A stretch of DNA of 64,000 nucleotides from an uncultured bacterium (GTDB taxonomy: Bacteria > Omnitrophota > Omnitrophia > Omnitrophales > Aquincolibacteriaceae), in contig CAYZYT010000012.1 in the NCBI GenBank assembly GCA_964482725.1, forward strand, positions 1,310 to 65,309, given 5' to 3'. Under the pieces are notes generated by a model. It had not been told where the DNA came from. It did not search any database and worked only from the letters and a program-made list of their open reading frames with translations. Both the position numbers and the translations under genes were made by a program. Shown here piece by piece: positions 9,883 to 48,772 of the stretch. Positions within the stretch are counted from its first letter, which is position 1. Every line of letters begins with the position of its first letter.

Positions 9883-10575
9883 TCATATTCCTTTGAGTTG
9901 ATGTTTCAGTTTCGATGCCGCGCACTGTGAGTCCTTTGCCGCAAAGATCGCCCGCACCACCGCCACCCTTGTCGCCCCGGCCCTGACCACGTCCTCGATA
10001 TTCCCGAGGTCAATACCGCCGATCGCAACCCAGGGAATCCGGATCTTCTCGGCCGCTTGCTGAACAAATCGTAATCCCACGGATTTCACGCGGGGTTTCG
10101 TCGGGGTGGTAAACACAGGCCCGACTCCGACATAATCCGCCCCTTCACGTACCGCCGCCAACGCCTGTTTCAAACTATGCGTCGACTTCCCGATCCAGAT
10201 CTTCCGCCCCGCCTGCTTCGCTAGGTTGCACGCCATACGAACCGGCATATCCTCTTGACCCAAATGGACTCCATCCGCGCCGGTTGCAAGCGCCAGATCC
10301 ATCCGGTCATTGATAAAAAAAAGCTTTCGCGTCTTTTCCGCGATCCTTTTGATCTTAAGTCCGAGTCTGATCAGCGCAGCATCCGAAAGCACTTTCGAGC
10401 GAAGCTGAACGATATCGGCGCCGCCTCGGTAAGCCGCTTCGATCTTTTCGAGGATCCCCGGATTTTCGGTTCGGAGATCCGTCACAGCGTAAAGACGGAA
10501 ACCCTCAAAAACTTTTTTTTTCCAATCCATAAACTTATGACACCGGGTTAACGGCTTCGTCATCCTGAGCCCCAA
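9883..10575 (-). CDS. thiE: Thiamine-phosphate synthase
   Basis: TMP-TENI fold (RLYAVTD...GADIVQLR...). The true start is probably the internal MDWKKK Met near 10530. Confidence 0.8.
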   Translation of the reverse strand: MGLRMTKPLTRCHKFMDWKKKVFEGFRLYAVTDLRTENPGILEKIEAAYRGGADIVQLRSKVLSDAALIRLGLKIKRIAEKTRKLFFINDRMDLALATGADGVHLGQEDMPVRMACNLAKQAGRKIWIGKSTHSLKQALAAVREGADYVGVGPVFTTPTKPRVKSVGLRFVQQAAEKIRIPWVAIGGIDLGNIEDVVRAGATRVAVVRAIFAAKDSQCAASKLKHQLKGI

Positions 10576-10623
10576 AGAGGGCGAAGGATCTCAACCGAGA
10601 TGCTTCGCTACGCTCAGCATGAC
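10558..10623. mobile_element. MITE/REP-like nested inverted-repeat element, copy 1
   Basis: Termini cgtcatcctgagc ... gctcagcatgacg enclose an inner palindrome gaaggatctcaaccgagatgcttc. Intergenic between thiE and rfaE. Confidence 0.6.
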
Positions 10624-10648
10624 GGGACTGCTGCGCGACCATATCCTC

Positions 10649-11122
10649 TCACGCCAACTTGAGGATCTTGATGACCCGCGTCGAGGAACGCCCTTGGACG
10701 AGTGGAATGCGTTTCACTTTTCCGCCCCAGGAAAGCACTTCCCGAGCCCCCACAATATCCTTGATCGCCCAGTCCGCGCCCTTCACAAGGACCTCCGGCT
10801 TGATCGTTTCGATCAGTTTGAGAGGCGTCGGATCATTAAAGAGAATGGCGTAGTCGACACAGGAAAGAGCGGTAAGAACTTTGATGCGATCTTGCTCGGG
10901 ATTCACGGGCCGGTTCGGATCTTTATAGGTCTTGACGGAACGATCCGTGTTCACACCCACGATCAGCACATCCGCAAACATGCGAGCCTTTTGCAGATAA
11001 GTCACATGGCCCAAATGGAGAATATCAAAAGTCCCGTTCGTAAAGGCCACGCGCTTGCCCTGGGCCTTGAGGCGACGGACTGTCGCAGACAACTTGTTTT
11101 TCGTCAGGATTTTAGAGGCCAT
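10649..11122 (-). CDS. rfaE: D-glycero-beta-D-manno-heptose 1-phosphate adenylyltransferase (RfaE/HldE domain II)
   Basis: Cytidylyltransferase-like FTNGTFDILHLGHVTYL motif, 157 aa. Confidence 0.8.
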   Translation of the reverse strand: MASKILTKNKLSATVRRLKAQGKRVAFTNGTFDILHLGHVTYLQKARMFADVLIVGVNTDRSVKTYKDPNRPVNPEQDRIKVLTALSCVDYAILFNDPTPLKLIETIKPEVLVKGADWAIKDIVGAREVLSWGGKVKRIPLVQGRSSTRVIKILKLA

Positions 11123-11219
11123 GATAAGAAAAAAACTTCCGGGTTATGACCGTTCTTCATTTATTTTTACGGGTAAACGGTACCATACCGCATACCTTTG
11201 AATTTTAATGCATGCGGTA

Positions 11220-11792
11220 TTAGCCGAAAAGGATCGTTTCGACAACCTCACAAATCCCGTGAAGCGCCGTCATATAGGCTTCCTGGATATGAGAAGTCTT
11301 ATTGGATTTAGCGATAAAGCAGAGATCCACGGCATCCTTCAAAATGCCCCCGTCTTTCCCGGTAAAACCGAGCGTTAGGATGCCCTGCTGTTTGGCTTGC
11401 GTGATCACATCCAGGATATTGGGAGAACGACCGCTTGTGGAAAGAACGACGAGAACATCCCCTTTTTGACCGAGCCCTTCGACCTGGCGGGAAAAGACCT
11501 TTTCAAAACCAAAGTCATTCCCGATCGCGGTAAGCGCCGCGATGTCCGCCGTAAGCGCGATGGCCGGAAGACTCCGCCGATCTTTCTCAAACCGACCGAC
11601 AAATTCGGCGGCAATATGCTGCGCGTCCGAGGCCGAGCCTCCATTCCCGCACAAAAGCAGTTTGTGTCCCGCGTTCAGGGCCTGGATGATGGCATGCGCC
11701 ATCTTGTCCAGCACTTCATACTGGGCGGGGACGAAAGTTTTCTGAAATGCTTCCTGATGTCCTTGAACAATGGTCTCGAAATTGTTTTTCAT
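11220..11792 (-). CDS. gmhA: Phosphoheptose isomerase (SIS domain)
   Basis: 190 aa with the GmhA signatures LLCGNGGSASDAQH and VLSTSGRSPN. Confidence 0.85.
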   Translation of the reverse strand: MKNNFETIVQGHQEAFQKTFVPAQYEVLDKMAHAIIQALNAGHKLLLCGNGGSASDAQHIAAEFVGRFEKDRRSLPAIALTADIAALTAIGNDFGFEKVFSRQVEGLGQKGDVLVVLSTSGRSPNILDVITQAKQQGILTLGFTGKDGGILKDAVDLCFIAKSNKTSHIQEAYMTALHGICEVVETILFG

Positions 11793-11795
11793 GGG

Positions 11796-12824
11796 TTAAC
11801 CAAAGAATATCTTGGCCAGCTCGTACATATCCGCCGGCACAGTTTTGAGTTCCCCCACCGCTTCCTGGAGTGGTACGGCCACGATATCGCGGCCACAAAG
11901 GCTGACCATGTGGCCAAACTTGCCCTCTTTGACCAGCTGAACCGCCTTCACACCGAACCGTGTCCCGAGCACACGGTCAAAAGCCGTCGGTGTACCGCCG
12001 CGCTGAATATGACCGAGCACGGTCGAACGGGTCTCGTAGCCCGTTTTCTTCTCTATGAGTTTCGCGAGACGGTCTCCCACCCCACCGAGAAGGACATGCC
12101 CGAATGCGTCGAGCTCTTTATTCGTTGTGACAAGCTCCTCCCCCTTGATCGAAAATCCTTCGGACACCGCGACCACGCTGAAGTTCTTACCGCGCGCGCG
12201 CTGTTTCGTGATATACCCGCAAACCTCATCGATCGTCAAAGAAACTTCCGGGATGAGGACGACGTCCGCACCGCCGGCGATCCCGGATTCCAGCGCGATC
12301 CAGCCGGCATGCCGGCCCATGATCTCGACCACCATCACGCGATCATGCGATTCCGCGGTTGTCCGAATACGGTCAAGACACTCGGTCGCAATATTGAGCG
12401 CCGTATCATAACCAAAGGTGTAATCCGTCGCATTGAGATCATTGTCGATCGTTTTGGGAACCCCGATGATCGGCATTCCGTCCTTGGAAAGTTTGTTCCC
12501 AGCGCCGAGGGTGTCCTCGCCCCCGATCGCGATCACGGCATCCAATTTGTTTTTTTTGATTGTCTCCCGAACTTTCTCCGCGTCACCTTCTTTTTTATAA
12601 GGGTTTGTGCGGGAAGTCCCCAGGATGGTCCCGCCACGAGGAAGGATTTCCGCAACCGACTTCTCGTCCAGTTCCACAAAATTGTTATTGATGATACCTT
12701 TCCAGCCCTGCTTGAATCCTATCACCTGCCAGCCTTCCGCTTTCGCCGTCTGCACAACGCCGCGGATCACCGCGTTAAGACCTGGGCAATCCCCGCCCCC
12801 CGTAAGCATTCCAATTCGTTTCAT
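11796..12824 (-). CDS. pfkA: 6-phosphofructokinase, probably pyrophosphate-dependent type
   Basis: MLTGGGDCPGLNAVIRGVV... The diagnostic positions read GGED (Asp at the site that is Gly-104 in E. coli) and PKTIDND (Lys at the site that is Gly-124 in E. coli). This D/K pattern is characteristic of PPi-PFK. Confidence 0.85.
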   Translation of the reverse strand: MKRIGMLTGGGDCPGLNAVIRGVVQTAKAEGWQVIGFKQGWKGIINNNFVELDEKSVAEILPRGGTILGTSRTNPYKKEGDAEKVRETIKKNKLDAVIAIGGEDTLGAGNKLSKDGMPIIGVPKTIDNDLNATDYTFGYDTALNIATECLDRIRTTAESHDRVMVVEIMGRHAGWIALESGIAGGADVVLIPEVSLTIDEVCGYITKQRARGKNFSVVAVSEGFSIKGEELVTTNKELDAFGHVLLGGVGDRLAKLIEKKTGYETRSTVLGHIQRGGTPTAFDRVLGTRFGVKAVQLVKEGKFGHMVSLCGRDIVAVPLQEAVGELKTVPADMYELAKIFFG

Positions 12825-12894
12825 CGATTGACTCCTTTAATGTTTTTGATGGGGCGCCCAACCCAAGGCCGAGGCCCACTTGAAAAAGTTCCGA

Positions 12895-13461
12895 TTAATT
12901 CCTTGAAGCTCCCGGGGCCTGAAGAACCGACCCGGCATCCTCGATCCCCCTCACGTCGCAGATCACGACAAGCGGGTTCTCAGGTCCCAGCAACCGCTTC
13001 ACCCGTTGCTGGACCTCCTGCTGCAATTCCGACAAAACCGCGGGCACATGCCCGCCCGTCCAAAGCACCAGCCGGAGCTTGATCTCGACATTTTTACCGG
13101 TGATGTTTACTTTTGCCTTCACACTTTTAACGAGCGGAAAACGCTTCACCGCTTTCACGGCCGTATTCCCTAACGTGTTGGCCGAAACCACCATCGGGCC
13201 GATCTCGCTTTGAAAAAAGATCGCTTCGTTCGGACGTCCCGCTTTCACAAGCATCTTTGTAAATGCCAGGCCGAGCACTATAAAGACAAGACCGACCACC
13301 CCGACTTGAACGGAACGCCAGGAACTTTGATAGATCTCCTGGACCTTGAGGATCGCGTCATCAAAAGCTAAAAGATGTAGCGAAACGATGATCATCAAAC
13401 TGCCCAGCGTCAGGAAGGCGAAGATAGCAAACAGCTGGGCAAAGGCGTTAGTGACCTTCAT
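12895..13461 (-). CDS. Membrane-anchored Asp23/Gls24-like (DUF322-like) protein downstream of accBC
   Basis: 188 aa with an N-terminal TM segment. Its position after accC mirrors the accB-accC-yqhY arrangement of Firmicutes. The similarity itself is weak. Confidence 0.4.
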
Positions 13462-14843
13462 TTCTTTTCTTTGTTCGCTTCCAACTCTTCAGTCTTCCCC
13501 GTGCCAAAGATCGTCGATTCAATGAATTTCGTATTCACGGAACCCTGACGAAACCTCGGATGGCTCAAAATGCGCACATGGAGCGGCGCGGTGGTCTTGA
13601 TCGGCTTCACTTCGATCTCACGAAGCGCCCGAAGCATGACCGTGATCGCGTCCTGGCGATTCTTGCCATAGGCGATCAACTTCCCGATCATGGAATCATA
13701 AAAAGGCGGGATCGAATAACCTGTATAAACATGGCTATCCAAACGCACGCCCGGACCGCCCGGCATCCGCCAAACCTCGATCTTCCCGGGAGACGGCATA
13801 AAATTATTGTCCGGATCTTCGGCGTTAATGCGGCATTCGATCGCATGCCCGCGGATCTCCACCTGCTCCTGAGTAAAACTCAGTTTTTCTCCGGCAGCGA
13901 TGCGCAGCTGCTCCTTCACGATATCGATTCCCGTCACCATTTCCGTAACGGGATGTTCGACCTGAAGACGGGTGTTCATCTCCATGAAATAAAAATCATC
14001 ATTTTTGTCGAGAAGGAATTCGATCGTTCCGGCATTCTCATACTTGAAAGTTTTCGCCGCCCGGATAGCCGTGTCGCCGATCCTCTTGCGAAGTTTTGCG
14101 CTCATACCGGGCGCGGGAGATTCCTCGATGAGTTTTTGGTGGCGCCGTTGAACCGAGCAGTCGCGCTCGCCCAGGTGCACCACATTGCCGAAACTGTCGG
14201 CAATGATCTGCACCTCGATATGACGCGGCTCTTCAATGAATTTCTCTATATATACTTCACCATTGCCGAAGGCGGCTTCCGCTTCGGTTTGAGCTGTCAG
14301 GAACGCACTGATAAGCTTTCCGTCATTGTGCGCGATCTTGATGCCTTTCCCTCCGCCGCCCGCAGAAGCTTTGACGATCACGGGATAACCCAGTTTTTTC
14401 GCAAGACGCAGGGCCTCTTCCTGATCCTTCACCGTCCCCTTACTCCCCGGGATGATCGGAACCCCGGCTTTTTTCATCTCTATTCTCGCATTCGATTTGT
14501 CGCCGGCCAGACGGATGGTTTCTGGTTTTGGTCCAATAAACTTGATCTGGCAAGACTCGCAGATCTCCGCAAAGTGCGCGTTCTCGGCAAGAAACCCGTA
14601 GCCCGGATGAATGGCTTCAACGTCCGCGATCTCAGCCGCGGAGATGAGGGCCGGAATATTGAGATAGCTTTCAGAACTGGGGGCCTCGCCGATGCAGATG
14701 GCGTCATCGGCCAGTTTTACGTGCAAGGATTCCCGATCCGCCTTGGAAAACACCGCCACGGTTTGAATGCCCATTTCACGGCACGCGCGAATCACACGCA
14801 CTGCGATCTCACCACGATTTGCTATTAGGATCTTTGAGAACAT
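13458..14843 (-). CDS. accC: Acetyl-CoA carboxylase biotin carboxylase subunit
   Basis: 461 aa. Reads [26 protein letters not shown]... and carries the ATP-grasp motifs. Confidence 0.9.
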
Positions 14844-14890
14844 GATTTTTCCCCGTATGAAGGGTTACTGTTGTGAAGAAGGTTTCGGGA

Positions 14891-15358
14891 TCAACCCTTT
14901 TTGATCTTCAGGATCGGCTGGTCGTACTCCACGGTCTGGCCATTCTGCACAAGGATCTCGATCACGGTTCCGCCCAATTCCGACTTGATCTCGTTCATGA
15001 GCTTCATAGCTTCGATGATACAAAGCACATCCCCGTCTTTAATCACTTTACCGACACTTACATAGGCGGGCTGGTCCGGAGCGGGAGAAGCATAAAAGGT
15101 TCCCACCATGGGCGAGCGCACGATCGTCACGCCTTCTTCAGCCACAGGTTGCACGGCCGCCGCAGGAGCCTGGCCCTGGACTGGGGCATGCATCCCCGTT
15201 TGCATCGGCGCCATCATCTGCGGGGCGCTGTGCATCACGATCCCACCGTTCGCCATCTTACGGAGTTTGATCTTCGCGTTGTCCTTCTCGATCTCGATCT
15301 CACCGACATTGTGCTCGGCCATCAACTCTAAAAGTTCTTTGATCTCCTTGATATTCAT
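14891..15358 (-). CDS. accB: Acetyl-CoA carboxylase biotin carboxyl carrier protein
   Basis: Biotinyl-lysine motif [11 protein letters not shown]. The stop overlaps accC upstream. Confidence 0.9.
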
Positions 15359-15855
15359 TTTCTTTTCCTCGCAACAAGTGCTTTTTTCACGGTTTTTTTG
15401 GAAGAATGAACGGAATTCGCTTGGGCGGCATAGGCCACAAGACCCCGCAGGCCCAGAAGATAACTGTTTTTACCAAACCCCGTCACCTGGGCAACGCATG
15501 CCGGGGCGGTCATAGAATGCTGCCTGAAATCCTCACGCTTAAAGATATGGCTTAAATGCACCTCGACCGCCGGAAGACCGCACGCGGCCAACGCATCGCG
15601 GATCGCGACACTCGTGTGGGTATAAGCTGCGGGATTGATCAAAATCCCTGCAAATTCCCGGCGCGCTCCCCCAATACGGTCCACGATCGCGCCTTCGTGA
15701 TTGCTCTGGAGGATCTCCAACTCGACGCCAAGCGCCTGGGCTTCACGTTCAAGTGCTTCGTTGATCTGTTTCAACGTCACTTTTCCATAGACCGTCACCT
15801 CCCGTTCCCCCAGGAGTTGCAAATTCGGGCCATGGACTACAAGAATTTTTTTCAT
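15355..15855 (-). CDS. aroQ: 3-dehydroquinate dehydratase, type II
   Basis: [24 protein letters not shown]...[15 protein letters not shown]. Forms the aroQ-accB-accC operon with 4-bp overlaps. Confidence 0.9.
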
Positions 15856-15968
15856 AAGAACGATCCTCTTTACCCGTCATTCCCGCATGCTGCTAGCCGG
15901 AATCTATTGGGTCTGGGTCCCCGGCAAAAACATTCGGGGACGACCTTAAAAAACAGGTCGATTCTAAA

Positions 15969-16949
15969 CTATTCCTTCGGCGATTGCATCATTTCCATGC
16001 TATCAATGTTTTTCTCCTTCAGCCCCCCGCGGAACGCGTACCAGATCCCGGAGCCGATGCTGAACGAATAAATCACGATATCCATCAAAAGCGTCAGTGC
16101 AAGCGCACGTTCCGCCGGAAGATAGCGGCTAAAAAGATACAGGACGCTGGCTTCCCTCACACCCAACCCGCCGATCGAAGGCGCCATACTAACGATGGAA
16201 ATAACGGGTATCAAGATAAAAAACTTCCAAAAATTGATATCGGCACCGATGGAAAGAGAGATCCAATAATTCGTACAAATAAAAACAGCCTGCCCGCAAA
16301 AAGAAAGCATCACGGCGATCAGGACGGGACCCCGATGATGCCGGTAACCGTAGATCGCATGATAAATTTCGGCAAGCTGCAACCTCCATTTTTCTTTAGG
16401 AATAAGACGCGCAAGTCCCTTAAAAAGGCGGGCGAAACGCCGGCTTGCAAAAAAAGCCCCGAAAAACACGATCACGCCAAGCGCGCCAAAGACCGCATAG
16501 TCAATGTAAGAGCTCTGAACTTCCTTGCTGAAACACATCAGCCCGATCGTCGCCATAAGAATGGTCGCGAGAAATCCAAGCATTCGATCGAGCATAATCG
16601 AAGTCGCGGATTCGATCTTTTTGCCCGAATGCTTGTAAGCATAAACAGCCTTGGCCACGTCCCCGCCCACGGCGGAAGGCAGCATCAGATTATAAAACAG
16701 CCCCACAAAACCGAGGTGATAACACTCGCGGAAGGTCATGCGGATATCCTGGACACGAAAAACCCACTGGAGCCGGACGGCAATGATGGCAAGGCCGAGA
16801 AAATAACCGGCGATCGCCGCAGCAAACCAGCCCCACACAACTTCATGGCGCAAAATGGCCATGGATTCATGCAGTTTGCCGCGCATGAAAAAAACAATGA
16901 GCCCTATCGCGGCAAAGCTGATGGCAAAACGGAGGATCTTGCCTTTCAT
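15969..16949 (-). CDS. UPF0104 / lysylphosphatidylglycerol-synthase-TM-like integral membrane protein
   Basis: 326 aa, polytopic, with a GGDVAKAV-type motif. Confidence 0.5.
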   Translation of the reverse strand: MKGKILRFAISFAAIGLIVFFMRGKLHESMAILRHEVVWGWFAAAIAGYFLGLAIIAVRLQWVFRVQDIRMTFRECYHLGFVGLFYNLMLPSAVGGDVAKAVYAYKHSGKKIESATSIMLDRMLGFLATILMATIGLMCFSKEVQSSYIDYAVFGALGVIVFFGAFFASRRFARLFKGLARLIPKEKWRLQLAEIYHAIYGYRHHRGPVLIAVMLSFCGQAVFICTNYWISLSIGADINFWKFFILIPVISIVSMAPSIGGLGVREASVLYLFSRYLPAERALALTLLMDIVIYSFSIGSGIWYAFRGGLKEKNIDSMEMMQSPKE

Positions 16950-17338
16950 ACGGTCTGCGAGAACTTGATCTGAAGTTGGGTAATAAGCGTTTCGAGCATT
17001 TTCTTTTCCTCCTCGCTCAAATTCCCCTGGGTCTTATCACGGAGCGCGATCAAAAGATCGATCGCCTCTTTGGCGCCTTCGGGATTGAGCTCCGTCTGCT
17101 GGGTCATAGGATTGGGGATATCGCCGAGGTTCATGAGAGCCTGATAGCCGAGCGATTGGACAAGGCTCAGAAAAGTCTTGGAGGTTTCAACGGGTTTGGT
17201 CTTAGCGGCCGGTGGGACAGCCGCGGCTTTGAGCTTAACGCTTTCGGCCTGCTCCTTCCAGCTTTCATCCACCTTCTTCTCAGTGAAGCGTATATCTTTG
17301 TCCGGTTCCATAAACCATTCTCCCATACTAAAATTCAA
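16946..17338 (-). CDS. DUF1844-family protein
   Basis: FLSLVQSLGYQALMNLGDIPNPMTQQTELNPEGAKEAIDLLIALRDKTQGNL matches the DUF1844 core. Overlaps the downstream gene by 4 bp. Confidence 0.55.
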   Translation of the reverse strand: MNFSMGEWFMEPDKDIRFTEKKVDESWKEQAESVKLKAAAVPPAAKTKPVETSKTFLSLVQSLGYQALMNLGDIPNPMTQQTELNPEGAKEAIDLLIALRDKTQGNLSEEEKKMLETLITQLQIKFSQTV

Positions 17339-17654
17339 AAATCACATCTTTCACTTATCGCAATAATATACCACTTCTGCGAATCCGCCAAACCACTCGG
17401 CCTATCCGCCATACATCACGTCGGATCAGTCCGTTCGCTGAAAACCGCTCACGGCTGAAAAAAAAGAGGTTCGTGACCGAGTGGGGATCTGGTGGCCACG
17501 AACCTCTGCAGGTGAGTCGAGACCCGTAAGTCTCGCATGCCGATATTATACTCCCGAGCTTTCCCCTGTCAACGCTCCGTCCAAGTCTTTTTTTTATTTA
17601 CATGCCTGGTGACCCGGGCAGCCCCGATCAATGACCTAGCGTTATGCTCTCAAA

Positions 17655-17700
17655 CTGCGGATAAAAGAAAAGCCCGGCTTCGAACAACCGAAACCGGGCT
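17655..17700 (-). terminator. Rho-independent terminator downstream of the giant gene
   Basis: Hairpin agcccggcttcgaacaaccgaaaccgggct, preceded on the plus strand by aaaagaaaa (a U-run in minus-strand sense). Confidence 0.6.
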
Positions 17701-40077: not shown

Positions 40078-41696
40078 TCTCTCTTACCCCCAAGGATTTT
40101 AGAAAGCGCGCCTAGCCCCTGCTGGATCATTTGATCCTGCTCCGAAAGAGCCCCCTGCGATTGCGTGGTACCACCGAAGTTTACAAGCTTCCCGGCTTTC
40201 TTCCCCCCCAAAAGCCGCCCCACCCCGTTGCTTAAAAGTTGATTCGCCCCAGTTTGAAGCAGCCGTGATCCTAGATAGGAAAGATCCGGCTGGACCGTGG
40301 CGTCTGGAAAAACACCGCTGTAACGGAAAGGGATCAACACTTGACCATTCCGGTCCGCGATCAATTCCATTTCACGGATCTTTTTCATTAGGAAAGCTGA
40401 GATGGCCCGCGATAACAACAAATGGAGGGAACCGTCGACACGTTTGTCCGAGATCCTGTAGGTCCCCTGCCCAGACAATTGATAGTTGGGGTGCATCAGC
40501 CCGAATTCGCTGATCTTCACGATTCCCCCCTGCACCCCAAACGCCACTTGCAGGGACTGGAAGGGCGTGTCACGGTCCTTCAACATCTCACTCAATTCCG
40601 GAGGGAGTTCCGCATTCGTGATCGCGAGCACCGGAGAAAGACGGTCAAAAACTTCCTTAATGAGATTCCTGTTCCGGAGCGCCCCATCCCGAATCTCGAG
40701 CGTCCCCTGGCCCTTGAGCGATTGCTGGATCATCGCCGGGTTCGCGCCATCAAACGCAAGCTGCGCCTTGGCACTAAGACGACCGGTCACATAATCGCCT
40801 TTTTTATAAACTTCCGGGATCACCGATTCCATGTCCAGATCACGGACCTCTAGCGTCCCCTCAAAATGCGGGAGCGTGTTGATCACCTTGAGGAGGCCTT
40901 TGAACAACGCCTTGTCAGGACCGTAGCGAAGCTGAAGATCCAGCGATCGCGACCCAAGGTCCAAGTCCCCCTCCGCCTCCAGATTTCTATTGGCGGAGTT
41001 AAAAACAGAGGCCCCCGCGGAAAAATGGAACGGCTGCTGGGCGGAAGGCTGACGAACATCCGCTTCCAAGTTTTCTATTTTTAGTTTGAAGGCCGGCTCA
41101 ACCGTCTCATCGGCGAAGTGGATCGTCGCACCCCGCACGAGAATCTTCCCGATACCGAATTTCCACCCCTCAGAAACACTTCCCAGATTCTTCAACGAAA
41201 TACTCTCGGCTCCTTCCGCCGCCTCTGCCTCGGGGATAAGACTCACCTGGGAGAGCATGGGAACAGCCGCAGGAATGGGGGTTGCAGGTTTTTTATCGGT
41301 TTGCCAATTCCAAGTCCCTTCCCGGTTGCGCGTAAGAAATATCTCGGGACTCTGAATTATGACTTCGGACATGATGAAGTGCTTACGCCAAATCGAGGTC
41401 AGATCGGCTTCGATCCTGACCTGATCGCTTTGCAGGATCTTTTCGAGGCTTTGAGGATGATAAAATTTGAGGCCATCGACCCGAAGCTGCGGCTGAGGGC
41501 GCCACTGGAGCTTGATCGCGCCAAGCTCCACGCGAAAACCTGTCTGTCGGGTAAGATATTTTTCGAATTCCGCCCGGAACATATTGGGATCAAAATTCCG
41601 AAGAGCGAAGTAGCCCATTCCCCCGAGAATCACTCCGAGGATCAAGAGCACAACAAGAAATCCTCCCAGGAATTTCAGGAAACCTCGTACGACCAT
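40074..41696 (-). CDS. AsmA-family outer-membrane assembly protein
   Basis: N-terminal TM anchor followed by a long beta-rich AsmA-like region, 540 aa. Confidence 0.6.
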   Translation of the reverse strand: MVVRGFLKFLGGFLVVLLILGVILGGMGYFALRNFDPNMFRAEFEKYLTRQTGFRVELGAIKLQWRPQPQLRVDGLKFYHPQSLEKILQSDQVRIEADLTSIWRKHFIMSEVIIQSPEIFLTRNREGTWNWQTDKKPATPIPAAVPMLSQVSLIPEAEAAEGAESISLKNLGSVSEGWKFGIGKILVRGATIHFADETVEPAFKLKIENLEADVRQPSAQQPFHFSAGASVFNSANRNLEAEGDLDLGSRSLDLQLRYGPDKALFKGLLKVINTLPHFEGTLEVRDLDMESVIPEVYKKGDYVTGRLSAKAQLAFDGANPAMIQQSLKGQGTLEIRDGALRNRNLIKEVFDRLSPVLAITNAELPPELSEMLKDRDTPFQSLQVAFGVQGGIVKISEFGLMHPNYQLSGQGTYRISDKRVDGSLHLLLSRAISAFLMKKIREMELIADRNGQVLIPFRYSGVFPDATVQPDLSYLGSRLLQTGANQLLSNGVGRLLGGKKAGKLVNFGGTTQSQGALSEQDQMIQQGLGALSKILGGKRE

Positions 41697-42139
41697 ACAC
41701 CCTCACCTTTTTTTTTGGCTTCCTCCTGGACTTTCAGAAACTTGGCCTTGCGACTGAAGTCCTGGGCTTCCGCGACTTTGGCAGCACCGATCTTTACCAG
41801 AAATTCATTAATAAGAACTTCCTGCTCATCAGGGATCTCGTTCAACTTCGCCGGAAATTTCAAATATTTCGCCTGAAGATAAGCGTAGGCGAACTCCTTG
41901 GCCCCCGGAGTGGAGTCGGCGATCAATTGGAACTTCAGGTCTTGCTTCTGAGCAAGCACCCGGAGGACCGAAATTCCCTCCGTGTCCATCTGGATCCCGA
42001 CCAGCACCACCTGCTTGCCGCTTTCAAGCGTCAGCGTTCCGTCCGGCCCGACCTCCGTCACGATCTCCGCGAAAAGAACCGAAGAAAAGACGCAAAGTCC
42101 CGGTAGGAGCAAAAAAAGCCACTTCATCCCTGATGTCAC
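41675..42139 (-). CDS. Secreted staphylococcal-nuclease (SNase/thermonuclease)-like protein
   Basis: Signal peptide. DGTLTL..VVLVGIQMDTEG resembles the SNase DGDT...GIDTPE pattern. The C-terminus ...KKKGEGVWS is of SNase type. Confidence 0.5.
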   Translation of the reverse strand: MTSGMKWLFLLLPGLCVFSSVLFAEIVTEVGPDGTLTLESGKQVVLVGIQMDTEGISVLRVLAQKQDLKFQLIADSTPGAKEFAYAYLQAKYLKFPAKLNEIPDEQEVLINEFLVKIGAAKVAEAQDFSRKAKFLKVQEEAKKKGEGVWSYEVS

Positions 42140-42591
42140 GACGCCCTGATCCTGCCATCGCTATAGTCAATCTCGGTTAATCCCAATTTCACGGTCCTGT
42201 ACTTTGTCCTAAGAGCCTTGAGCTGTTCTTGACCCGCAGGGTTGTATTGGTAAAAACGAACCTGTTCCTTTTTATTCAAAACCCCCGCGTCGCTATAAGC
42301 GCCGGGAATACCCCAAAACCACGACAGCGGATAGGTGAAGAGGTTAAAAAAAGCCATTCCCCAAAGCTGTTTTTCTTCAGACCCGGAAGCAAGGTAGAAA
42401 TGTCCCACACCGGGCAATACGTTCAGCCAGGCTGCCACCGACGGATCCTTGATCTGCACACGGCACGTGCTGACCTTATAAGACTTCAGCTCATACACCG
42501 CATTTTTCTCAGCGGGCGAAAGCGACATGCAACCGGAGAGCATCACAACCGTTATGAACATTCCGCTTAATTTCAAAAAATTCTTCGCCAT
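42136..42591 (-). CDS. Hypothetical lipoprotein
   Basis: Lipobox VVMLSGC after the signal peptide. 151 aa. Confidence 0.5.
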   Translation of the reverse strand: MAKNFLKLSGMFITVVMLSGCMSLSPAEKNAVYELKSYKVSTCRVQIKDPSVAAWLNVLPGVGHFYLASGSEEKQLWGMAFFNLFTYPLSWFWGIPGAYSDAGVLNKKEQVRFYQYNPAGQEQLKALRTKYRTVKLGLTEIDYSDGRIRAS

Positions 42592-42691
42592 TCGATCCTC
42601 CTGACGGGGTCTCGACTTCTCACGGGCTCTCCCCGAACCTTGTGAAAAATCTTTTTGTGAAACGTTTATCGATAAGAACCTAAAAAAAACA

Positions 42692-43096
42692 TTATGCCGA
42701 AAAGCGACGGTAGCGGATCATTTCACCACGGGCACCGATACGACCCTCCGGAAATGCGTTGGCTGAAAGTTCCGGCCAGTATTTAACATTGATCACTTCT
42801 TCAGCCTTGTAACGCTCTTTCGCTACTCCTCGTATTTTCTCATTCAAAAGCCCTTGAAGGTATTCTTCCTGAGACGGATTCTTTATAAAACCAAAAGAGA
42901 CCCATTCCCCAAGCTGCCCCGCAACACGCTTGTATTGAACCGGAGGCGCCTTGAGATCCACTTGGATCCATCCCAGCGATTCATACGGGATGGTCAGGCT
43001 TTTGCTGTCCTGTGTCACGACCATTTTCTCGACACGCGAACACCCGGCTAAAACAACAAGAACGGCCAAACTAAAAATTATTTTCCTTTGACGATC
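42692..43096 (-). CDS. Hypothetical lipoprotein
   Basis: The likely start MDRQRKIIFSLAVLVVLAGC gives a lipobox. The longer ORF to 43222 would overlap the upstream gene. Confidence 0.45.
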   Translation of the reverse strand, partial: DRQRKIIFSLAVLVVLAGCSRVEKMVVTQDSKSLTIPYESLGWIQVDLKAPPVQYKRVAGQLGEWVSFGFIKNPSQEEYLQGLLNEKIRGVAKERYKAEEVINVKYWPELSANAFPEGRIGARGEMIRYRRFSA

Positions 43097-43145
43097 CATG
43101 CGCTCTCCACTTTTTGATACTTTATTATACCTATTTTCGAGGGCT

Positions 43146-44483
43146 TTACTTACCGATCTTTTTCCGAAGCCAGGAAAGGGCCTCTTCCCTTGTCTTATGC
43201 GTTCCTTCCAGCTGAAGAACATAAAGCTCTTCCAGGATCGGCTTCATCTCCCGGCCGGGTTTCATGCCAAGCGCCATAAGGTCATGACCGCTCACGAGCG
43301 GCTTGGGTTTTAACTCCTCATGTTCGTATTCCTTAAGCTTGTCCCGTAGAAACGTGAGATTATCCAGCATCCCATGGCTGGCGGTGCAATCCACTCGATG
43401 AAGCTCCATTTCCTCTTCGAAACGCGGACGACTGATGAATTGCTTGAGCTTCCCAGCGCGCATCTTCTGCACATCCATGAATTTCATATGATTGGCCACG
43501 AATGCTGAAACCCCGTCGATCTCCTCGTTCGAAAAACGCAACCGCCGCATGATCGCGGAAGCGATCTTCACACCCTCTTCGGAATGCTCATAAAAAGTCA
43601 GACGGCCCTTGCGGATCGCGGAGGTCTTGGGCTTCCCGATGTCATGGAAAAGTGCCGAAAAAGCTAGAATGGTTGAGACCGGAGGATGAAGGTGCTCGAG
43701 GAGAAGTCGCGTGTGCTCATAGACATCCCCTTCCGGATGAAAATTCTCGGGCTGCTCCACGCCGCGCATCGTTTCCACCTCCGGAAGGATCTCTTTCATG
43801 AGCCCGGATTTCGAAAGGAGCACGAAGCCGCGTGCCGCTCCGAAGCGCGTGAAGATCTTCACAAGTTCCTCACGAATCCTCTCCGGACTCACTTCGTGGA
43901 TCTTGGAGGCGTGCTTACAAAGAGCCTCCCAAGTTTTCGTTTCGATCTCAAAACCAAGCGTCGAAGCAAAACGGACCGCCCGGAGAAGCCGCAGCTTGTC
44001 TTCTTCAAAACGGGCTGCAGGATCACCGATCGCGCGTATCACCTTTCGGGGCAGATCCTTCAGCCCTTCCACAAAGTCAATCACCTTCTCCTCGAAGGGA
44101 TCATAGAACATGCCGTTCACGGTGAAATCACGCCGCCTGGCATCTTCCTCAGGCTGGGTAAATGCAACATGGGTGGGATGCCGGCCGTCCTGGTATCCCC
44201 CTTCGCAACGGAAGGTCGCGACTTCAAAGGGAGTCTCTTCTTCGACCACGATCATCACGCCAAATTGCTTGCCGACGGGAATCGTCCGGCGGAAGATCTT
44301 TTCAACCTCTTCAGGCGTCGCGGTCGTGGCGATATCAAAATCCTGGGGTTTCTGGCCTCGCAAATAGTCCCGGACACACCCCCCCGCAAAATACGCGGTG
44401 AATCCTTTATCTTTCAAGGTCTGAGCGATCGCGCGTGCCAGCCGCCCTTTCGGCTCACTTAAATCCATCGGTCCCGATTCCAT
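43146..44483 (-). CDS. CCA-adding enzyme / poly(A) polymerase family tRNA nucleotidyltransferase with HD domain
   Basis: FAGGCVRDYLRGQKPQDFDIATTA head domain and a C-terminal HD motif LFHDIGKP. Confidence 0.85.
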   Translation of the reverse strand: MESGPMDLSEPKGRLARAIAQTLKDKGFTAYFAGGCVRDYLRGQKPQDFDIATTATPEEVEKIFRRTIPVGKQFGVMIVVEEETPFEVATFRCEGGYQDGRHPTHVAFTQPEEDARRRDFTVNGMFYDPFEEKVIDFVEGLKDLPRKVIRAIGDPAARFEEDKLRLLRAVRFASTLGFEIETKTWEALCKHASKIHEVSPERIREELVKIFTRFGAARGFVLLSKSGLMKEILPEVETMRGVEQPENFHPEGDVYEHTRLLLEHLHPPVSTILAFSALFHDIGKPKTSAIRKGRLTFYEHSEEGVKIASAIMRRLRFSNEEIDGVSAFVANHMKFMDVQKMRAGKLKQFISRPRFEEEMELHRVDCTASHGMLDNLTFLRDKLKEYEHEELKPKPLVSGHDLMALGMKPGREMKPILEELYVLQLEGTHKTREEALSWLRKKIGK

Positions 44484-44534
44484 GTCTCTCCGTTTGGGTA
44501 GTAGAGTAATATGGTCTTTTTAGTTTTCCAGATC

Positions 44535-44619
44535 CGTCATGCTGAGCTTGCCCCGTTTTACGGGGCGCGCGAAGCATCACGAACGAGATCCTTCGCCCTC
44601 TTCGGGACTCAGGATGACG
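44535..44619. mobile_element. MITE/REP-like nested inverted-repeat element, copy 2
   Basis: cgtcatgctgagc ... actcaggatgacg, with an internal gccccgttttacggggc hairpin and the inner palindrome gaagcatcacgaacgagatccttc. Confidence 0.6.
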
Positions 44620-44646
44620 AAATATTCAAAAACAGGTACTCGCTAT

Positions 44647-44997
44647 TTAGACGCTAAAAAAATCGCGGGCAGCTTTGTCTCCTGCGGCTTTTTGATAATC
44701 CAGATAATCGATCAAGAGAAGATCAGGCCGCTTCTCGGCCAACCTCCTGGCGAGTTGGAACCGCTCTGAGGGATGCGTCTCAAGACGCCGGCTTGCGATA
44801 TACTTGAACACCGTCCCACATTGGGGGCAGGCCTTCGTATCGTAAGCGTTAATCCCAAGCTCATTGCAGGAAGCACAATTCCCCGAAAGATCCCCGATGA
44901 TCAAAAGACTTTTTTTGACCTCTTCAAGAATGAACGCCTTGTAGGTACGCAGATAATGCTGGGCCATGGATTCCTCACTCATTAATAAACCCGTCAT
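44647..44997 (-). CDS. Hypothetical zinc-ribbon protein
   Basis: CASC...CPQC. The annotated ATG lies inside the terminal repeat of MITE copy 3, so the real start is probably a downstream Met (MSEE.. or MAQHY..). Confidence 0.4.
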   Translation of the reverse strand: MTGLLMSEESMAQHYLRTYKAFILEEVKKSLLIIGDLSGNCASCNELGINAYDTKACPQCGTVFKYIASRRLETHPSERFQLARRLAEKRPDLLLIDYLDYQKAAGDKAARDFFSV

Positions 44998-45066
44998 TCT
45001 GAGCCCAAATGGCGAAGAATCTCACAACGAGATCCCTCTCCCGCTCCCGGCGGGATCAGGATGACG
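44992..45066. mobile_element. MITE/REP-like element, copy 3
   Basis: cgtcattctgagc ... gatcaggatgacg, inner gaagaatctcacaacgagatccctc. Confidence 0.6.
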
Positions 45067-45074
45067 CTAACGCA

Positions 45075-45572
45075 TCACTTCTTAAAAACAAGATCGCCGG
45101 CACGGACTCGAGACTTCACTTCAACGCCAAAATCATCGCCTTTTTTTGCGATCAGAACCGGCTGATGATCGATCTGCATGGAAATAACCTTTTGCTTAAA
45201 ATCCGTGGTATGGCCCTTAAACAGCAACTCATCCCCGATCCGGATCTCCCCGGTCTTGATCTTGAGCACGGCAGCATTCACATGCGAAAAAAAATGCGTC
45301 ACCTCGGCCGTCGGCAGGGCCGCCAGCGCAACCCGGACCATTCTCGGCTGCTTCTTCGCCGGTTTTTTCTTCTTCGCGGATTTCGTCTTGGCTTTCGCTG
45401 AAACTTTTTTAACAGCCTTCTTTTTAGTCGGTTTGGCTACTTTCCTCTTGGCGGGCTTGGCCACTTTTTTCCTAGCGGCTTTCCCTTTGGCTTTTGCGAC
45501 CTTCTTGGACTTGGGCGAACCGAAAAGCGCTTTTCCGATCTTCTTGAGAAATTTCATGGTTTTTCCTCCCAA
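45075..45572 (-). CDS. Lys/Ala-rich histone-H1-like protein with C-terminal small beta-domain
   Basis: AKAKGKAARKKVAKPAKRKVAKPTKKKAVKK repeats, followed by a structured roughly 90-aa tail. Confidence 0.4.
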   Translation of the reverse strand: MGGKTMKFLKKIGKALFGSPKSKKVAKAKGKAARKKVAKPAKRKVAKPTKKKAVKKVSAKAKTKSAKKKKPAKKQPRMVRVALAALPTAEVTHFFSHVNAAVLKIKTGEIRIGDELLFKGHTTDFKQKVISMQIDHQPVLIAKKGDDFGVEVKSRVRAGDLVFKK

Positions 45573-45595
45573 TATTGAGAAACCCTAACACAATG

Positions 45596-45658
45596 CCGTC
45601 ATCCTGAGCCAAGCGAGGAATCTTGTTGAGATTCTTTGGCCTACGGCCTCAGAATGAC
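45596..45658. mobile_element. MITE/REP-like element, copy 4
   Basis: ccgtcatcctgagc ... cctcagaatgacg, inner gaggaatcttgttgagattcttt. Confidence 0.6.
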
Positions 45659-45685
45659 GCGTTTCGAGTGAGCCTCTAAAAATGT

Positions 45686-46810
45686 TTACGTATCTTTTCC
45701 CAACGCGATCTCTTTAGGCGCCGGAGCCACAACCTGGCCCTGATGTTGTTCCAGGACATTCAGCCGGTTCCGTAATTTTTGGAACCGCTGCTCCGTTTTT
45801 TCATACGCCGTACGGGCATGCGCCAGATGCCCACCGATCTTTTCAAAATCCGTCAGGCACTGCTCCAGGTCAACTTCCAACTGGCCCAAGTTCTCCAAGA
45901 TGATCTGAGCCGAGCGCTCGATCCTCATCCCTTTGAGTCCGCGTACGATCGACTGGAGATACACATAAAAACTGTTCGGCGAGACGGGGATGACCTTGCG
46001 TTTCATGGCATACGCTGAAAGGCTTTCATTCTGAGCATCGTCCTTGATGATCGTTTCATAATAAATACTCTCGGAAGGAATGTACATAAGCGCGAACTCG
46101 AAGGTGCCTTCTTCGGGCAAAATATATTTCGAACCGATGTCATCAATGTGTTTTTTGACGTCCCGCCAGAATCCCTTGCGCGCTTCCCCTTGTTTTTCGT
46201 CGCTCCCCGCTTCCAGAATTCGCTTGAAATTCTCAAGCGGGAATTTCGCATCCACCGGGATCAATCCTTCGCCGAGCCGGATGATGGCGTCCACCTGGGA
46301 GCCGTTCGCAAAGCGGTACTGAAGAGCAAAATGGTCTTCCGGCAGGATCTGGCGCAAAAGTTCCGCGAGGAGTAGCTCCCCCATGCCTCCGCGAAGCTTC
46401 GGAGCCCGGAGAATATCATGCAGCGAAGAGATGTCCTTCCCAATATCCATCATGGACTGCGTGGCGTGCTGCAGAACACCCAACCGATGCTGGACATCGC
46501 CCATGACCTGACGGTAATTCTGCTGATTTTCCTGAAGGAACTGGGTGTTCTGCTTCATCTGATCGTTCATCTGGCGCGCGAGAGTCTGGATCTGGTCCTG
46601 CAGCGTCGTATTGAGATTATGGAGTTCCTGCTGGAGCTGGAGGAATGGCTGGAAGGTCTTGTCGTCTGCGGAGGTTCGTTTCGACAGATGCTGAAAAAAC
46701 CAAAAGACCGCAATAAAAGCGCAAAGGGAAGCTGCCACCGTGATGAGCACTAAAAGGGACGCGTTCATGAGCGGATTATAGCTTAAAGAAGGACTCCAGA
46801 CCAGAGACAA
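45686..46810 (-). CDS. rmuC: DNA recombination protein RmuC
   Basis: N-terminal TM segment plus coiled-coil, then the RmuC core ...RGGMGELLLAELL...IPVDAKFPLE. Confidence 0.85.
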   Translation of the reverse strand: MSLVWSPSLSYNPLMNASLLVLITVAASLCAFIAVFWFFQHLSKRTSADDKTFQPFLQLQQELHNLNTTLQDQIQTLARQMNDQMKQNTQFLQENQQNYRQVMGDVQHRLGVLQHATQSMMDIGKDISSLHDILRAPKLRGGMGELLLAELLRQILPEDHFALQYRFANGSQVDAIIRLGEGLIPVDAKFPLENFKRILEAGSDEKQGEARKGFWRDVKKHIDDIGSKYILPEEGTFEFALMYIPSESIYYETIIKDDAQNESLSAYAMKRKVIPVSPNSFYVYLQSIVRGLKGMRIERSAQIILENLGQLEVDLEQCLTDFEKIGGHLAHARTAYEKTEQRFQKLRNRLNVLEQHQGQVVAPAPKEIALGKDT

Positions 46811-46879
46811 GAGACTGTAGACAAAAAAGCAATAGCCGCTGGCCTTTAGTCTGTAGTCTCCAGTCTCAAGTCTCTCGTC

Positions 46880-48625
46880 TTATTTAATGAACGTAATATT
46901 AATGTCCTCACGATGCGCCGTCGGCTCGGAGTAGATCGAAATGCGACTGCCGGTGTTCTTCTCCAGAAAACGCAGCGCCTTTTTTTCCTGCAGAAGCAAA
47001 CGTTCCGAGACATCCGGATGCACATACGCGTTCACAATACGGTCCCGGGAATCCTTCAGAGATTTACGCAGTTCCCGGATCACCTGGATCGCCATCGTAG
47101 CGGTCGATTTGATATTGCCCTTGCCCTCACAATACGGGCAGGTGTCATAGACCGCGCTTTCAAGCGACGGACGCATCCTCTGGCGCGTCATCTGGATCAA
47201 CCCGAGCTCGGAAACCTGCACCAGATGGGTCTTGGCGCGATCCTTGCTCACCGCCTCTTTAAAGATATTAAAGAGATTGCGACGGTGCTGTCCCTGCTCC
47301 ATATCGATAAAATCGATCACGATAATACCGCCAACGTCACGAAGCCGGAGCTGGCGCGCGATCTCCTGTGCGGCCTCAACGTTGTTCTTATACACCGTTT
47401 CCTCAAGCCCCTTGTTGTTCCCGGTAAATTTTCCGGTATTCACGTCGATCGCCACGAGGCTTTCGGTCTGCTCGATCACGACCGATCCTCCCGACTTCAG
47501 GTGGACATTCTTCTGAAACGTCCGCTCGATCTCTTTTTCGATGCCGTGACGTTCAAAGAGACTTCCCTTTTCCTTCGCGAACTCGATATTCAGGTCCTGC
47601 CCCGGCATATACACGGAAGTGAACCTCTTGAGTTTCTTGAAGATCTCGGGATGATCCACCACGATCTTGGTGGTTTCCTCGTTCACGTAATCGCGGACCA
47701 CGCGCTCCACCAGACCGAGCTCCTGGTGGATCATGACCGGGGCTTTCTTGGCGGAAATCATGCCGTGGATCTTTTTCCAAAGTCGTATGAGATAGCGGAT
47801 ATCACGCGTAAAATCCGCGTCACTTTTCCCTTCGGCATTCGTACGCACAATGAAGCCCACGCCTTTGGGGATCTCCAAGCTGCGAAAAATTCCACGGATA
47901 CGGTCGCGCTCCGAACGGCTCTCCACGCGTCGCGAAATACCGATCTTTGACTCGCCCGGCATCATCACAAGATAACGGGCCGGGATCGAGAATTGCGTCG
48001 TAAGGCGCGGCCCCTTGTTCCCAAGCGACTCTTTCACAACCTGCACAATAACTTTTTGACCCACTTTCAGGACCTCTTCGATCCTGGGTTTGCGCTGATG
48101 AGGCGTATGTTGATGCGAGGGCTGATTCCGACCGCCTTGGCGGCCACCTTGATGATGCCGTCCGCCGCGGCCTCGATCCCGCCCATGCCGTCCCTGACCT
48201 CGTCCTTGCCCATGAGGCTGCCCATGAACGGGCACGGCGGCTTGCGCATGTCCTGCGACCGGAGCGGCCACAGAGACCGAAGGCGGCGCTTGGATATTAC
48301 CTTCGATCACGACACCTTCGGGCGGCTTTACTTCCGTCACGGTTCCTTCTGTTTTCTTCTCCTCACCGTCATCGAATTCCGCGTCAAGATCCAGCGGTGA
48401 ACGGAGGGCGTCGCCGACATAAAGAAAACCATCTTTCCCGGTCCCGATATCCACGAATGCGGCATCGATCCCCGGGATCACGGTCTTCACGATCCCTTCG
48501 TAGATATTCCCAAAAAGCTTCTTCGAATCCCCTCGTTCGATATAGAATTCTTCCAGCCGGCCGTCTTCAAGAATGGCGACTTGTTTTTCGTTAGCGTCTT
48601 GTGAAATTAATATTTGTCTTTCCAT
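46880..48625 (-). CDS. rng: Ribonuclease E/G family endoribonuclease
   Basis: S1 domain (LFGNIYEGIVKTVIPGIDAAFVDIG) and DNase I-like catalytic core. Contains an Arg/Gly/His-rich insertion. Confidence 0.85.
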   Translation of the reverse strand: MERQILISQDANEKQVAILEDGRLEEFYIERGDSKKLFGNIYEGIVKTVIPGIDAAFVDIGTGKDGFLYVGDALRSPLDLDAEFDDGEEKKTEGTVTEVKPPEGVVIEGNIQAPPSVSVAAPVAGHAQAAVPVHGQPHGQGRGQGRHGRDRGRGGRHHQGGRQGGRNQPSHQHTPHQRKPRIEEVLKVGQKVIVQVVKESLGNKGPRLTTQFSIPARYLVMMPGESKIGISRRVESRSERDRIRGIFRSLEIPKGVGFIVRTNAEGKSDADFTRDIRYLIRLWKKIHGMISAKKAPVMIHQELGLVERVVRDYVNEETTKIVVDHPEIFKKLKRFTSVYMPGQDLNIEFAKEKGSLFERHGIEKEIERTFQKNVHLKSGGSVVIEQTESLVAIDVNTGKFTGNNKGLEETVYKNNVEAAQEIARQLRLRDVGGIIVIDFIDMEQGQHRRNLFNIFKEAVSKDRAKTHLVQVSELGLIQMTRQRMRPSLESAVYDTCPYCEGKGNIKSTATMAIQVIRELRKSLKDSRDRIVNAYVHPDVSERLLLQEKKALRFLEKNTGSRISIYSEPTAHREDINITFIK

Positions 48626-48662
48626 GACCTTCTCGATCCTTTCGTTTATTCCATTTAAATGC

Positions 48663-48772
48663 CGTCATTCTGAGTCTGCTGTCCCGCCGCTGGCGGGACA
48701 AGCATCAGGCGAAGAATCTCAAAGCGAGATCCTTCTTCCGCCCTCGGCGGAATCAGGATGACGCGGCTTTAT
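48663..48772. mobile_element. MITE/REP-like element, copy 5 (longest)
   Basis: ccgtcattctgagtc ... gaatcaggatgacgcgg, with an extra hairpin gtcccgccgctggcgggac and the inner palindrome gaagaatctcaaagcgagatccttc. Confidence 0.6.

Follow-up and report, generated by a model that had tools for sequence, protein, structure and literature searches.

The genome of an uncultured member of the Candidatus Omnitrophota carries, within the 64-kb stretch analysed here (the window), five intergenic copies of a short repeat built from two inverted hairpin units that begin with CGTC. We consider it likely that each copy is a head-to-head pair of hairpins of the kind described as CGTC-tagged repetitive extragenic palindromes (CGTC REPs) and as SRM motifs, and that it represents a gene-less miniature of a cassette that encodes an Ssn-type GIY-YIG nuclease. 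What we observe directly are the family itself, its structure at the level of single arms, the pairing of units, the presence or absence of copies in relatives, and the link to GIY-YIG genes.

Results

Five paired-hairpin elements in the window

An earlier note on this DNA, made from the sequence alone, had described five intergenic copies of a REP-like, multi-copy family, and this description holds: all five are present and comprise ten half-units (Table 1). The end of copy 5 had been placed 9 bp too far, at 48772, so that sizes range from 63 to 101 bp and not from 63 to 110 bp. The limits given here take in the C and G that extend the termini, and the plan common to the five copies is (C)GTCATNCTGAG ... 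CGAAGNATCTC, a short loop, and GAGATNCTTCG ... CTCAGNATGAC(G). A search for the terminus GTCATYCTGAG with at most one mismatch gave 12 matches in the window against 2.0 expected, a number reached by none of 100 shuffles, and ten of the 12 are the ends of the five copies. A covariance model trained on 74 half-units, all of them from other genomes and none from the window, recovers the ten half-units of the five copies, neither more nor fewer, at E-values of 1e-9 to 3e-3. Among these, the left unit of copy 4 is weak (20.9 bits), with a one-base insertion in its foot.

The next match of the model is a degenerate unit at 15874-15907 (E 0.23), and there is nothing further. It is part of a sixth pair in the window, absent from the earlier note, which belongs to a sister family resembling NTS/dRS3 and fits the published SRM pattern. 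Given this pair, the lineage has two hairpin families and may perhaps have two nuclease specificities. A strict scan of the window for a CGTC unit with a perfect stem produced a single match, inside the RNase G gene, which we attribute to chance.

Four of the copies lie within a run of genes on the same strand. Each element is symmetric, so that both strands read alike, and the predicted folds are very stable (-28 to -59 kcal/mol, z -4 to -6). The proposal that the copies serve as transcription terminators found no support: a T-run is absent 3' of all five, none is called terminator-like, the strands are symmetric, and copy 1 lies between apparently divergent open reading frames (ORFs).

Table 1 Positions of the repeat copies in the window and of start codons that overlap them.
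Feature	Position	Size	Units	Setting	Remarks
Copy 1	10558-10624	67 bp	10557-10593 (+), 10596-10625 (-)	between thiE (-) and a doubtful + ORF (176 aa)	45.5 + 39.5 bits
Copy 2	44535-44619	85 bp	44534-44581 (+), 44584-44620 (-)	between the zinc-ribbon ORF stop and the CCA-adding enzyme gene start	
Copy 3	44992-45066	75 bp	44991-45024 (+), 45028-45067 (-)	between the 160-aa Lys-rich ORF and the zinc-ribbon ORF	
Copy 4	45597-45659	63 bp	45596-45625 (+), 45627-45660 (-)	between the rmuC stop and the 160-aa Lys-rich ORF start	
Copy 5	48663-48763	101 bp	48662-48721 (+), 48725-48764 (-)	between the secretin (pilQ-like) stop and the RNase E/G start	
Sixth pair, degenerate, sister (NTS/dRS3-like) family	15874-15947			intergenic, between divergent genes	CGTCATTCCCGC..GCCGGAATC ... 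GGGTCCCCGG..CGGGGACGAC
Spurious start, zinc-ribbon ORF	44997				
Spurious start, 176-aa ORF	10619				
Spurious starts, thiE	10575, 10563				

Covariation marks each arm as a separate hairpin

The unit reads (C/T)GTC, AT-N-CT, GA, a tip, GA, AG-N'-AT and C, in that order, with GTCATTCTGAGCGAAGCGAAGAATCTC as its canonical form, and every copy is an inverted pair of units with the tags outside. Each of the ten units in the window reads CGTCAT; in most of 188 pairs, GTC is preceded by T or C. GTC itself, the AT foot and the C 3' of the foot are invariant or nearly so. The stem consists of 5 bp, a tandem G.A mismatch and 2-8 more pairs; its first two pairs are A-T (342/376) and T-A (368/376), and positions 6-7 are G.A and A.G in ~98% of units. 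Tips span 3-30 nt; their loops can be as short as 3 nt (GAA) or exceed 9 nt, and the units have a CTC tail. Between the arms, a short spacer is closed by CTC/GAG and one or two covarying pairs. We found 209 pairs with the tags outside, most of them tight (spacers of 2-35 nt), and 109 of 510 units were unpaired. In the window, the tip of the left arm of copy 2 is itself a hairpin (CCCCG-TTTTA-CGGGG), and copy 5 has long GC hairpins as the tips of both arms. The additional GC hairpins pointed out before are therefore real, but they are variable tips of the arm hairpins and not insertions into a long palindrome.

N is the only freely varying base of the conserved blocks, and its pairing behaviour is informative. 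Within arms, the N positions form Watson-Crick pairs in 151 of 157 elements on the left (N1:N2) and in 153 of 157 on the right (N3:N4), or ~97%, whereas across arms they do so in 61/157 and 63/157 (~39%), about the level given by base composition. The alignment of 74 units has CG in 36, UA in 33 and GC in 5 cases at this pair, with none unpaired; the observed covariation was matched by none of 500 shuffles, and the next tip pairs covary too. Copy 1 itself illustrates the pattern, with C/G on the left and G/C on the right, where cross-arm pairing would give C.C and G.G. Because N covaries inside each arm and is uncorrelated across arms, the unit is best described as a single hairpin, and sequence covariation indicates that this is the evolutionarily constrained structure and that each copy is two independent hairpins. 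The nested palindrome seen in the earlier reading does correspond to the fold predicted from energy, but it is not the conserved structure, and the long cross-arm hairpin was rejected in that role on covariation, despite its energetic preference.

The same units flank GIY-YIG nuclease genes

Following a lead from the literature, we located a nuclease gene by means of permissive stop-to-stop ORFs in all fetched loci. This search for GIY-YIG ORFs gave one match, on an Omnitrophota contig (L061). The contig has a GIY-YIG gene of 96 aa (PF01541, 66 bits) whose ATG lies 13 nt beyond the end of a left unit and whose stop codon is overlapped by a right unit; 50 nt upstream there is a complete miniature pair. 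Relatives of the L061 protein number more than 6,000 at E <= 1e-10, and the closest nuclease genes come, like the window, from Ca. Omnitrophota. In L061 and nine close homologues, the genes encode 96-103 aa and are flanked by units of the family, or of a variant of it, in 10/10 contexts. A sandwich of left unit, gene and right unit is found in L061, L185, L179-184, L186, L191-196 and L197. L177/178 and L187/188 have the same arrangement with a variant foot (ATTGC/GCAAT or ACTGC/GCAGT) that covaries within the arm, and in L189/190 and L200 the gene is flanked by complete pairs or arrays. One identical nuclease protein occurs in two distinct gene neighbourhoods. The L061 protein is 52% identical (E 6e-22) to a Neisseria gonorrhoeae locus flanked by canonical NTS repeats, CGTCATTCCCGCGCAGGCGGGAATC; by virtue of this identity, it qualifies as an SsnA homologue in the published sense. 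Placement in the Ssn family (cd10448) is made here through PF01541 together with the 52% identity to the NTS-flanked gene.

L200 is a plasmid locus of Planktothrix agardhii (plasmid p1, NZ_LR882964.1 18450-19513) with element arrays on both sides of the ssn-like gene, which lies inside a defence island, between an MmeI-type restriction-modification gene and the DISARM gene drmA. In L179-L184, from six samples, the unit-ssn-unit cassette has a primase/D5-helicase gene on one side and a large serine recombinase on the other, all within an integrative element. L177 and L187/L188 (Thermodesulfovibrio and another genome) have runs of variant-family half-sites (..CTCGCAATGAC every ~25 nt) beside the ssn gene.

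The repeat family is widespread

A pattern made of the two termini is present in at least 120 genome loci from at least 15 phyla, counting one genome per species, and in 27 viral contigs, each of which also has the inner GCGAAGNATCTC...GAGATNCTTCGC. Among the matches listed are Bacteroidota, Acidobacteriota, Chloroflexota, Omnitrophota, Planctomycetota, Verrucomicrobiota, Bacillota, Cyanobacteriota, groups of the Candidate Phyla Radiation (CPR), Nitrospinota, Nitrospirota, Gemmatimonadota, Synergistota, Armatimonadota and several proteobacterial classes; cyanobacterial plasmids carry the repeat as well. This places the family among the most widely spread short repeats seen here. By crude gene calls, the occupied gaps across phyla lie between genes of the same direction in 53 cases, convergent genes in 22 and divergent genes in 14. 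When ORFs of at least 90 aa at 147 repeat-bearing loci were clustered all against all, no recurring neighbour emerged; ABC ATPases, response regulators and one phage lineage made up the top clusters. A scan of the viral contigs for relatives of the nuclease did not confirm any. A search of the literature for the repeat as a text string returned unrelated primers only.

Two viral contigs have tandem arrays of 4-5 complete pairs with 12-90-nt linkers (L011 8546-8969 and L020 9003-9429), in which the arms are near-identical and the central loops vary between copies. In L019, two inverted copies 3.2 kb apart were considered as a composite element and rejected; what lies between them is a set of duplicated phage tail genes.

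Presence and absence of copies among close relatives

Proteins 87-98% identical to the window's RNase G bear the name Candidatus Omnitrophota. We compared the window with 28 metagenome loci whose RmuC is 57-96% identical (most 81-96%). The order secretin, RNase G, rmuC, 160-aa ORF, zinc-ribbon ORF and CCA enzyme is conserved in these 28 loci. For each intergenic gap, most relatives show an empty state (~30-40 nt) and a few an occupied one. L155 has an orthologous copy 2 with different tips and without the hairpin that forms the window's left tip, L161 has a copy at the copy 5 site, again with different tips, and L150/L151 have a copy in the RNase G-rmuC gap, where the window has none. In L159, L163, L169 and L171, these operon gaps hold the sister family, GTCATCCCCGA..TCGGGGATCCAG..CTGGATTCCCGC..GCGGGAATGAC. 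Counts of the unit's head with one mismatch in the relatives are too noisy to be read as densities. No target-site duplication is seen at the five window copies or at filled versus empty sites in the relatives. GGCAG does occur on both flanks in L150/L151, but this is most simply chance, because none of the five window copies has a duplication.

Other palindromes occupy some of the same gaps. A long, imperfect one, GACGAGAGACTTGAGACTGGAGAC...GTCTCTTGTCTCTGGTCTGGAGTC, lies at 46811-46879 of the window, in the gap that separates RNase G from rmuC; in L149-L170 the hairpin is kept and its sequence differs in nearly every relative, and in L150/L151 the element copy replaces it. L155 and L157 have another, perfect palindrome, AAAGGGGTCAGTCACC...GGTGACTGACCCCTT, in the gap between the 160-aa ORF and the zinc-ribbon ORF, which is filled by copy 3 in the window.

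Relation to CGTC REPs, SRM motifs and other small repeats

As described by Di Nocera et al. in 2013 (PMC3733652), CGTC-tagged REPs have a CGTC/TGTC (also CCTC) tag, an 8-9-bp stem opening with A-T pairs, a 4-5-nt loop and a tail that is mostly CCA, with others allowed. They form head-to-head dimers with the tags outside, often heterodimers, and "apparently lack a dedicated transposase". The families CGTC-1 to -4 include Rickettsia RPE-4/-6, and CGTC-1 in Neisseria is dRS3. Set against that description, the window family shares the CGTC/TGTC tag, the A-T and T-A first pairs, the head-to-head dimers with tags outside in intergenic DNA, the common heterodimers, the position downstream of genes and the lack of a known transposase. 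It differs in its interrupted stem, in its tips, which at 3-30 nt depart from the 4-5-nt loop, and in its tail, CTC in place of CCA. The 2013 study reports CGTC REPs from 5 phyla, whereas the window family alone is found in at least 15 phyla and in phage contigs. Judged by these descriptions, we are probably dealing with a new sequence family among the CGTC REPs and SRM motifs, although the stem type may be that of CGTC-2; the Sulfurovum CGTC-2 peptide RHSELVSGS given there back-translates, ambiguously, to CGTCATTCTGAG..., which suggests a shared head.

The second relevant system is that of SsnA, a 94-aa GIY-YIG protein that acts on single-stranded DNA (ssDNA) only and does not bind RNA (Chenal 2025, PMC11893778). 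NTS (CGTCATTCCCGCGMAVGCGGGAATCYRG), a longer form of dRS3, is bound by SsnA and nicked a few bases 5' of the motif. Cutting depends most on the three bases that precede the palindrome and binding on the C that follows it, and ssn genes typically have hairpins of this kind on their flanks (PMC11893778). In the window units, these two key positions are the invariant GTC and C. As in SRM/NTS, the units of the window family have a 5' (C/T)GTC, a hairpin stem that starts with AT and ends with AT, and then C; they are multi-copy and intergenic, and they flank a ~95-aa single-domain GIY-YIG gene of the Ssn type on both sides. The differences lie in the stem, an 8-bp perfect ATTCCCGC in SRM/NTS versus a 5-bp foot, tandem G.A mismatch and variable tip, and in the tail, CYRG versus CTC. 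Moreover, most copies of the window family are tight pairs.

Resemblances to other small elements are more limited. At gathering thresholds, Rfam matched neither the window nor any of 16 loci; with E-value thresholds, RF02901 (AaHKsRNA41, Aggregatibacter sRNA 41) was the sole family reported, below its cut-off. The RF02901 consensus holds the paired motif ..TGCTGAGCnnnnCGAAGCATC...GATGnTTCGnnnnGCTCAGCA.., with a different outer tag, and is annotated as a small RNA (sRNA) forming a single long hairpin; its match to the copy at L009 3007-3132 scores 50.9 bits against a cut-off of 97. A related repeat thus seems to underlie this "sRNA" family. Like the bacterial miniature inverted-repeat transposable elements (MITEs) Correia/NEMIS, RUP, ERIC and Nezha, the copies are small, non-coding and intergenic, with inverted ends and possible RNA folding. 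MITEs have target-site duplications and originate from DDE insertion sequences, whereas the window family has no duplication and its full-length form carries a nuclease gene. REPINs and their REP-associated tyrosine transposases (RAYTs) share with the window family inverted doublets of short hairpins, a 5' tetranucleotide tag, a single-copy gene flanked by matching units and, by analogy, a putative recognition as ssDNA. They have a GTAG tag and an HUH (Y1) tyrosine transposase and are mostly lineage-restricted; the window family has a CGTC tag and a GIY-YIG nuclease.

Discussion

Alternative explanations

The resemblance to MITEs, suggested in the earlier note, raises the question of whether the copies are deletion derivatives of a DDE insertion sequence with 12-13-bp terminal inverted repeats and a target-site duplication. 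The ends are indeed inverted repeats, copies are polymorphic among relatives, and the GGCAG flanks in L150/L151 would fit. We nevertheless regard this origin as very improbable: inspection of the flanks, which that note had recommended, shows no duplication at any of the five window copies, the variable base of the presumed terminal repeat is uncorrelated between the two ends, no transposase recurs near the 147 loci, and the full-length relatives with these ends carry a GIY-YIG gene and not a DDE transposase. Somewhat less remote, but still quite unlikely, is a REPIN in the strict sense, that is, a doublet of REPs moved in trans by a RAYT (a Y1 HUH transposase of the IS200/IS605 type). The shared plan of two inverted hairpin units with a 5' tag and no target duplication speaks for it, as do the intergenic position, most often downstream of genes, and the fact that RAYTs likewise act on ssDNA hairpins. 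The tag is (C/T)GTC and not GTAG, however, and the gene between the arms is GIY-YIG in 10/10 contexts. Neighbour clustering gave no recurrent (transposase) family by the repeats, ORFs not having been screened individually for a Y1 domain, and Di Nocera et al. (PMC3733652) record no RAYT flanked by CGTC repeats.

A primary role at the RNA level, in which hairpins inside operons would be selected because they block 3' exonucleases or act as targets of RNases, attenuators or sources of sRNA, is the best of the alternatives and yet one that we think unlikely. It would account for the very stable folds, the four copies in a same-strand gene run, the excess of convergent and unidirectional over divergent gaps across phyla (75 vs 14) and the sub-threshold match to RF02901. 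It does not sit well with the missing U-tract, with the symmetry of the element on both strands, or with copies that come and go among close relatives while the operon is unchanged. The conserved bases, moreover, are the foot and the tags and not overall stability, and SsnA does not bind RNA (PMC11893778). Such effects may well be real as a side effect, yet they leave the cross-phylum conservation of the sequence unexplained. Chance hairpins, or paralogous terminators without a shared origin, would explain the hairpin character only, and we give this virtually no weight: the termini are six-fold enriched over shuffles, the 25-nt unit is present in at least 120 genome loci, at least 15 phyla and 27 viral contigs, and a model trained elsewhere recovers all ten units, by which this explanation is already refuted.

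The interpretation that we favour, in which the copies are gene-less miniatures of an Ssn-type cassette, has to contend with several observations of its own. Energy minimisation favours the long cross-arm hairpin in 149 of 161 elements, and the arm-local fold, as read from covariation, draws on essentially one foot position plus the tips. The nine homologues that join L061 in the ten gene contexts were chosen by the analyst and are not a random sample, and of 175 loci sampled through the repeat, only one has the nuclease gene. Neither the 64-kb window nor ~190 kb of sequence from close relatives contains an ssn/GIY-YIG gene. The published SRM pattern, HGTCWYN(0-2)YYVSBRHN(0-5)WNVSBRGN(0-2)RNCYNB, matches NTS, NTSvar and the sister-family unit, but none of the 510 units of the window family. 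Finally, we know of no way in which a GIY-YIG nuclease could rejoin DNA, and insertion is therefore not explained by the nuclease alone.

A putative mechanism and its implications

If the copies are miniatures of an Ssn-type cassette, each arm would fold on its own in single-stranded DNA. The likely partner is an Ssn-type GIY-YIG nuclease with a single domain and a length of 96-103 aa, whose gene would lie at another place in the genome, in a cassette with the two matching arms at its ends. By analogy with SsnA, this enzyme would recognise the hairpin in ssDNA only and introduce a nick a few bases 5' of GTC. The inverted order of the arms places the predicted nick just outside the element on both strands. 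Either strand of a copy would present one cleavable unit at its 5' side, and ssDNA that enters the cell or forms during replication would be nicked there. The 63-101-bp copies, scattered in intergenic gaps, would be gene-less miniatures of this cassette. That an Ssn is present in this genome and cuts these arms is what we infer from the analogy, and the same reasoning extends to the mode by which copies spread and to possible effects on the recombination of incoming ssDNA or on mRNA. The host might benefit, for example through limited recombination of the repeat-flanked zinc-ribbon, 160-aa ORF and rmuC-RNase G genes; alternatively, the benefit could be to the element only. RNA-level effects within the operon are plausible as side effects.

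A bolder and distinctly tentative proposal, which we would sooner doubt than accept, is that "hairpin unit - ssn - inverted hairpin unit" constitutes a mobile element of a new mechanistic class, of which the window pairs would be non-autonomous miniatures. Mobilisation would proceed through ssDNA nicks made by the GIY-YIG nuclease just outside both ends. If true, such a mobile cassette would explain the spread of "orphan" CGTC REPs across at least 15 phyla and into phages.

CGTC repeats have been on record since 2013 as abundant palindromes, with no known enzyme, and Neisseria NTS/dRS3 since 2025 as the target of a GIY-YIG nuclease specific for ssDNA. New here is a second family, distinct in sequence, that escapes the published search pattern and in which the nuclease gene occupies the place of the loop of the miniature elements. 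It offers a testable autonomous/non-autonomous pairing for repeats of unexplained spread and puts natural substrate/enzyme pairs on hand for ssDNA tools.

Gene annotation around the copies

The ATGAC ends of the element yield false start codons and may break assemblies, a warning for annotation. Overlaps between ORFs and copies in the window arise only from spurious upstream starts at the ATG of the ...ATGAC terminus (Table 1). The earlier suspicion that copy 3 supplies a wrong ATG to the zinc-ribbon ORF was correct: the true start is at 44967, the equivalent of which is an ATG start in more than 20 syntenic relatives without the element, where a GAGG Shine-Dalgarno sequence precedes it, and an independent gene call on identical DNA gives a protein of 106 aa and not 116. 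For thiE (9883-10575, -), whose start candidates 10575 and 10563 lie inside copy 1, a start at 10530 is more likely than either. For RmuC, the TTG first taken as its start is wrong. The 176-aa ORF at 10619-11149 (+) begins with MTGLL on the ATGAC end of the element, has no Pfam match and is doubtful. The 160-aa ORF (45075-45557, -) combines a Lys/Ala-rich N-terminal half (KKVAKAKGKAARKKVAKPAKRK...) with a conserved C-terminal domain; the ORF has no Pfam match, and in all relatives it is conserved beside a small four-Cys ORF.

With respect to assembly, the Logan contig L148 (8828 bp), an independent assembly of the window DNA, stops ~80 bp beyond the zinc-ribbon gene, approximately where copy 2 is expected, which fits the notion that the repeats break short-read assemblies. 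Many ssn homologues sit on contigs of ~1 kb.

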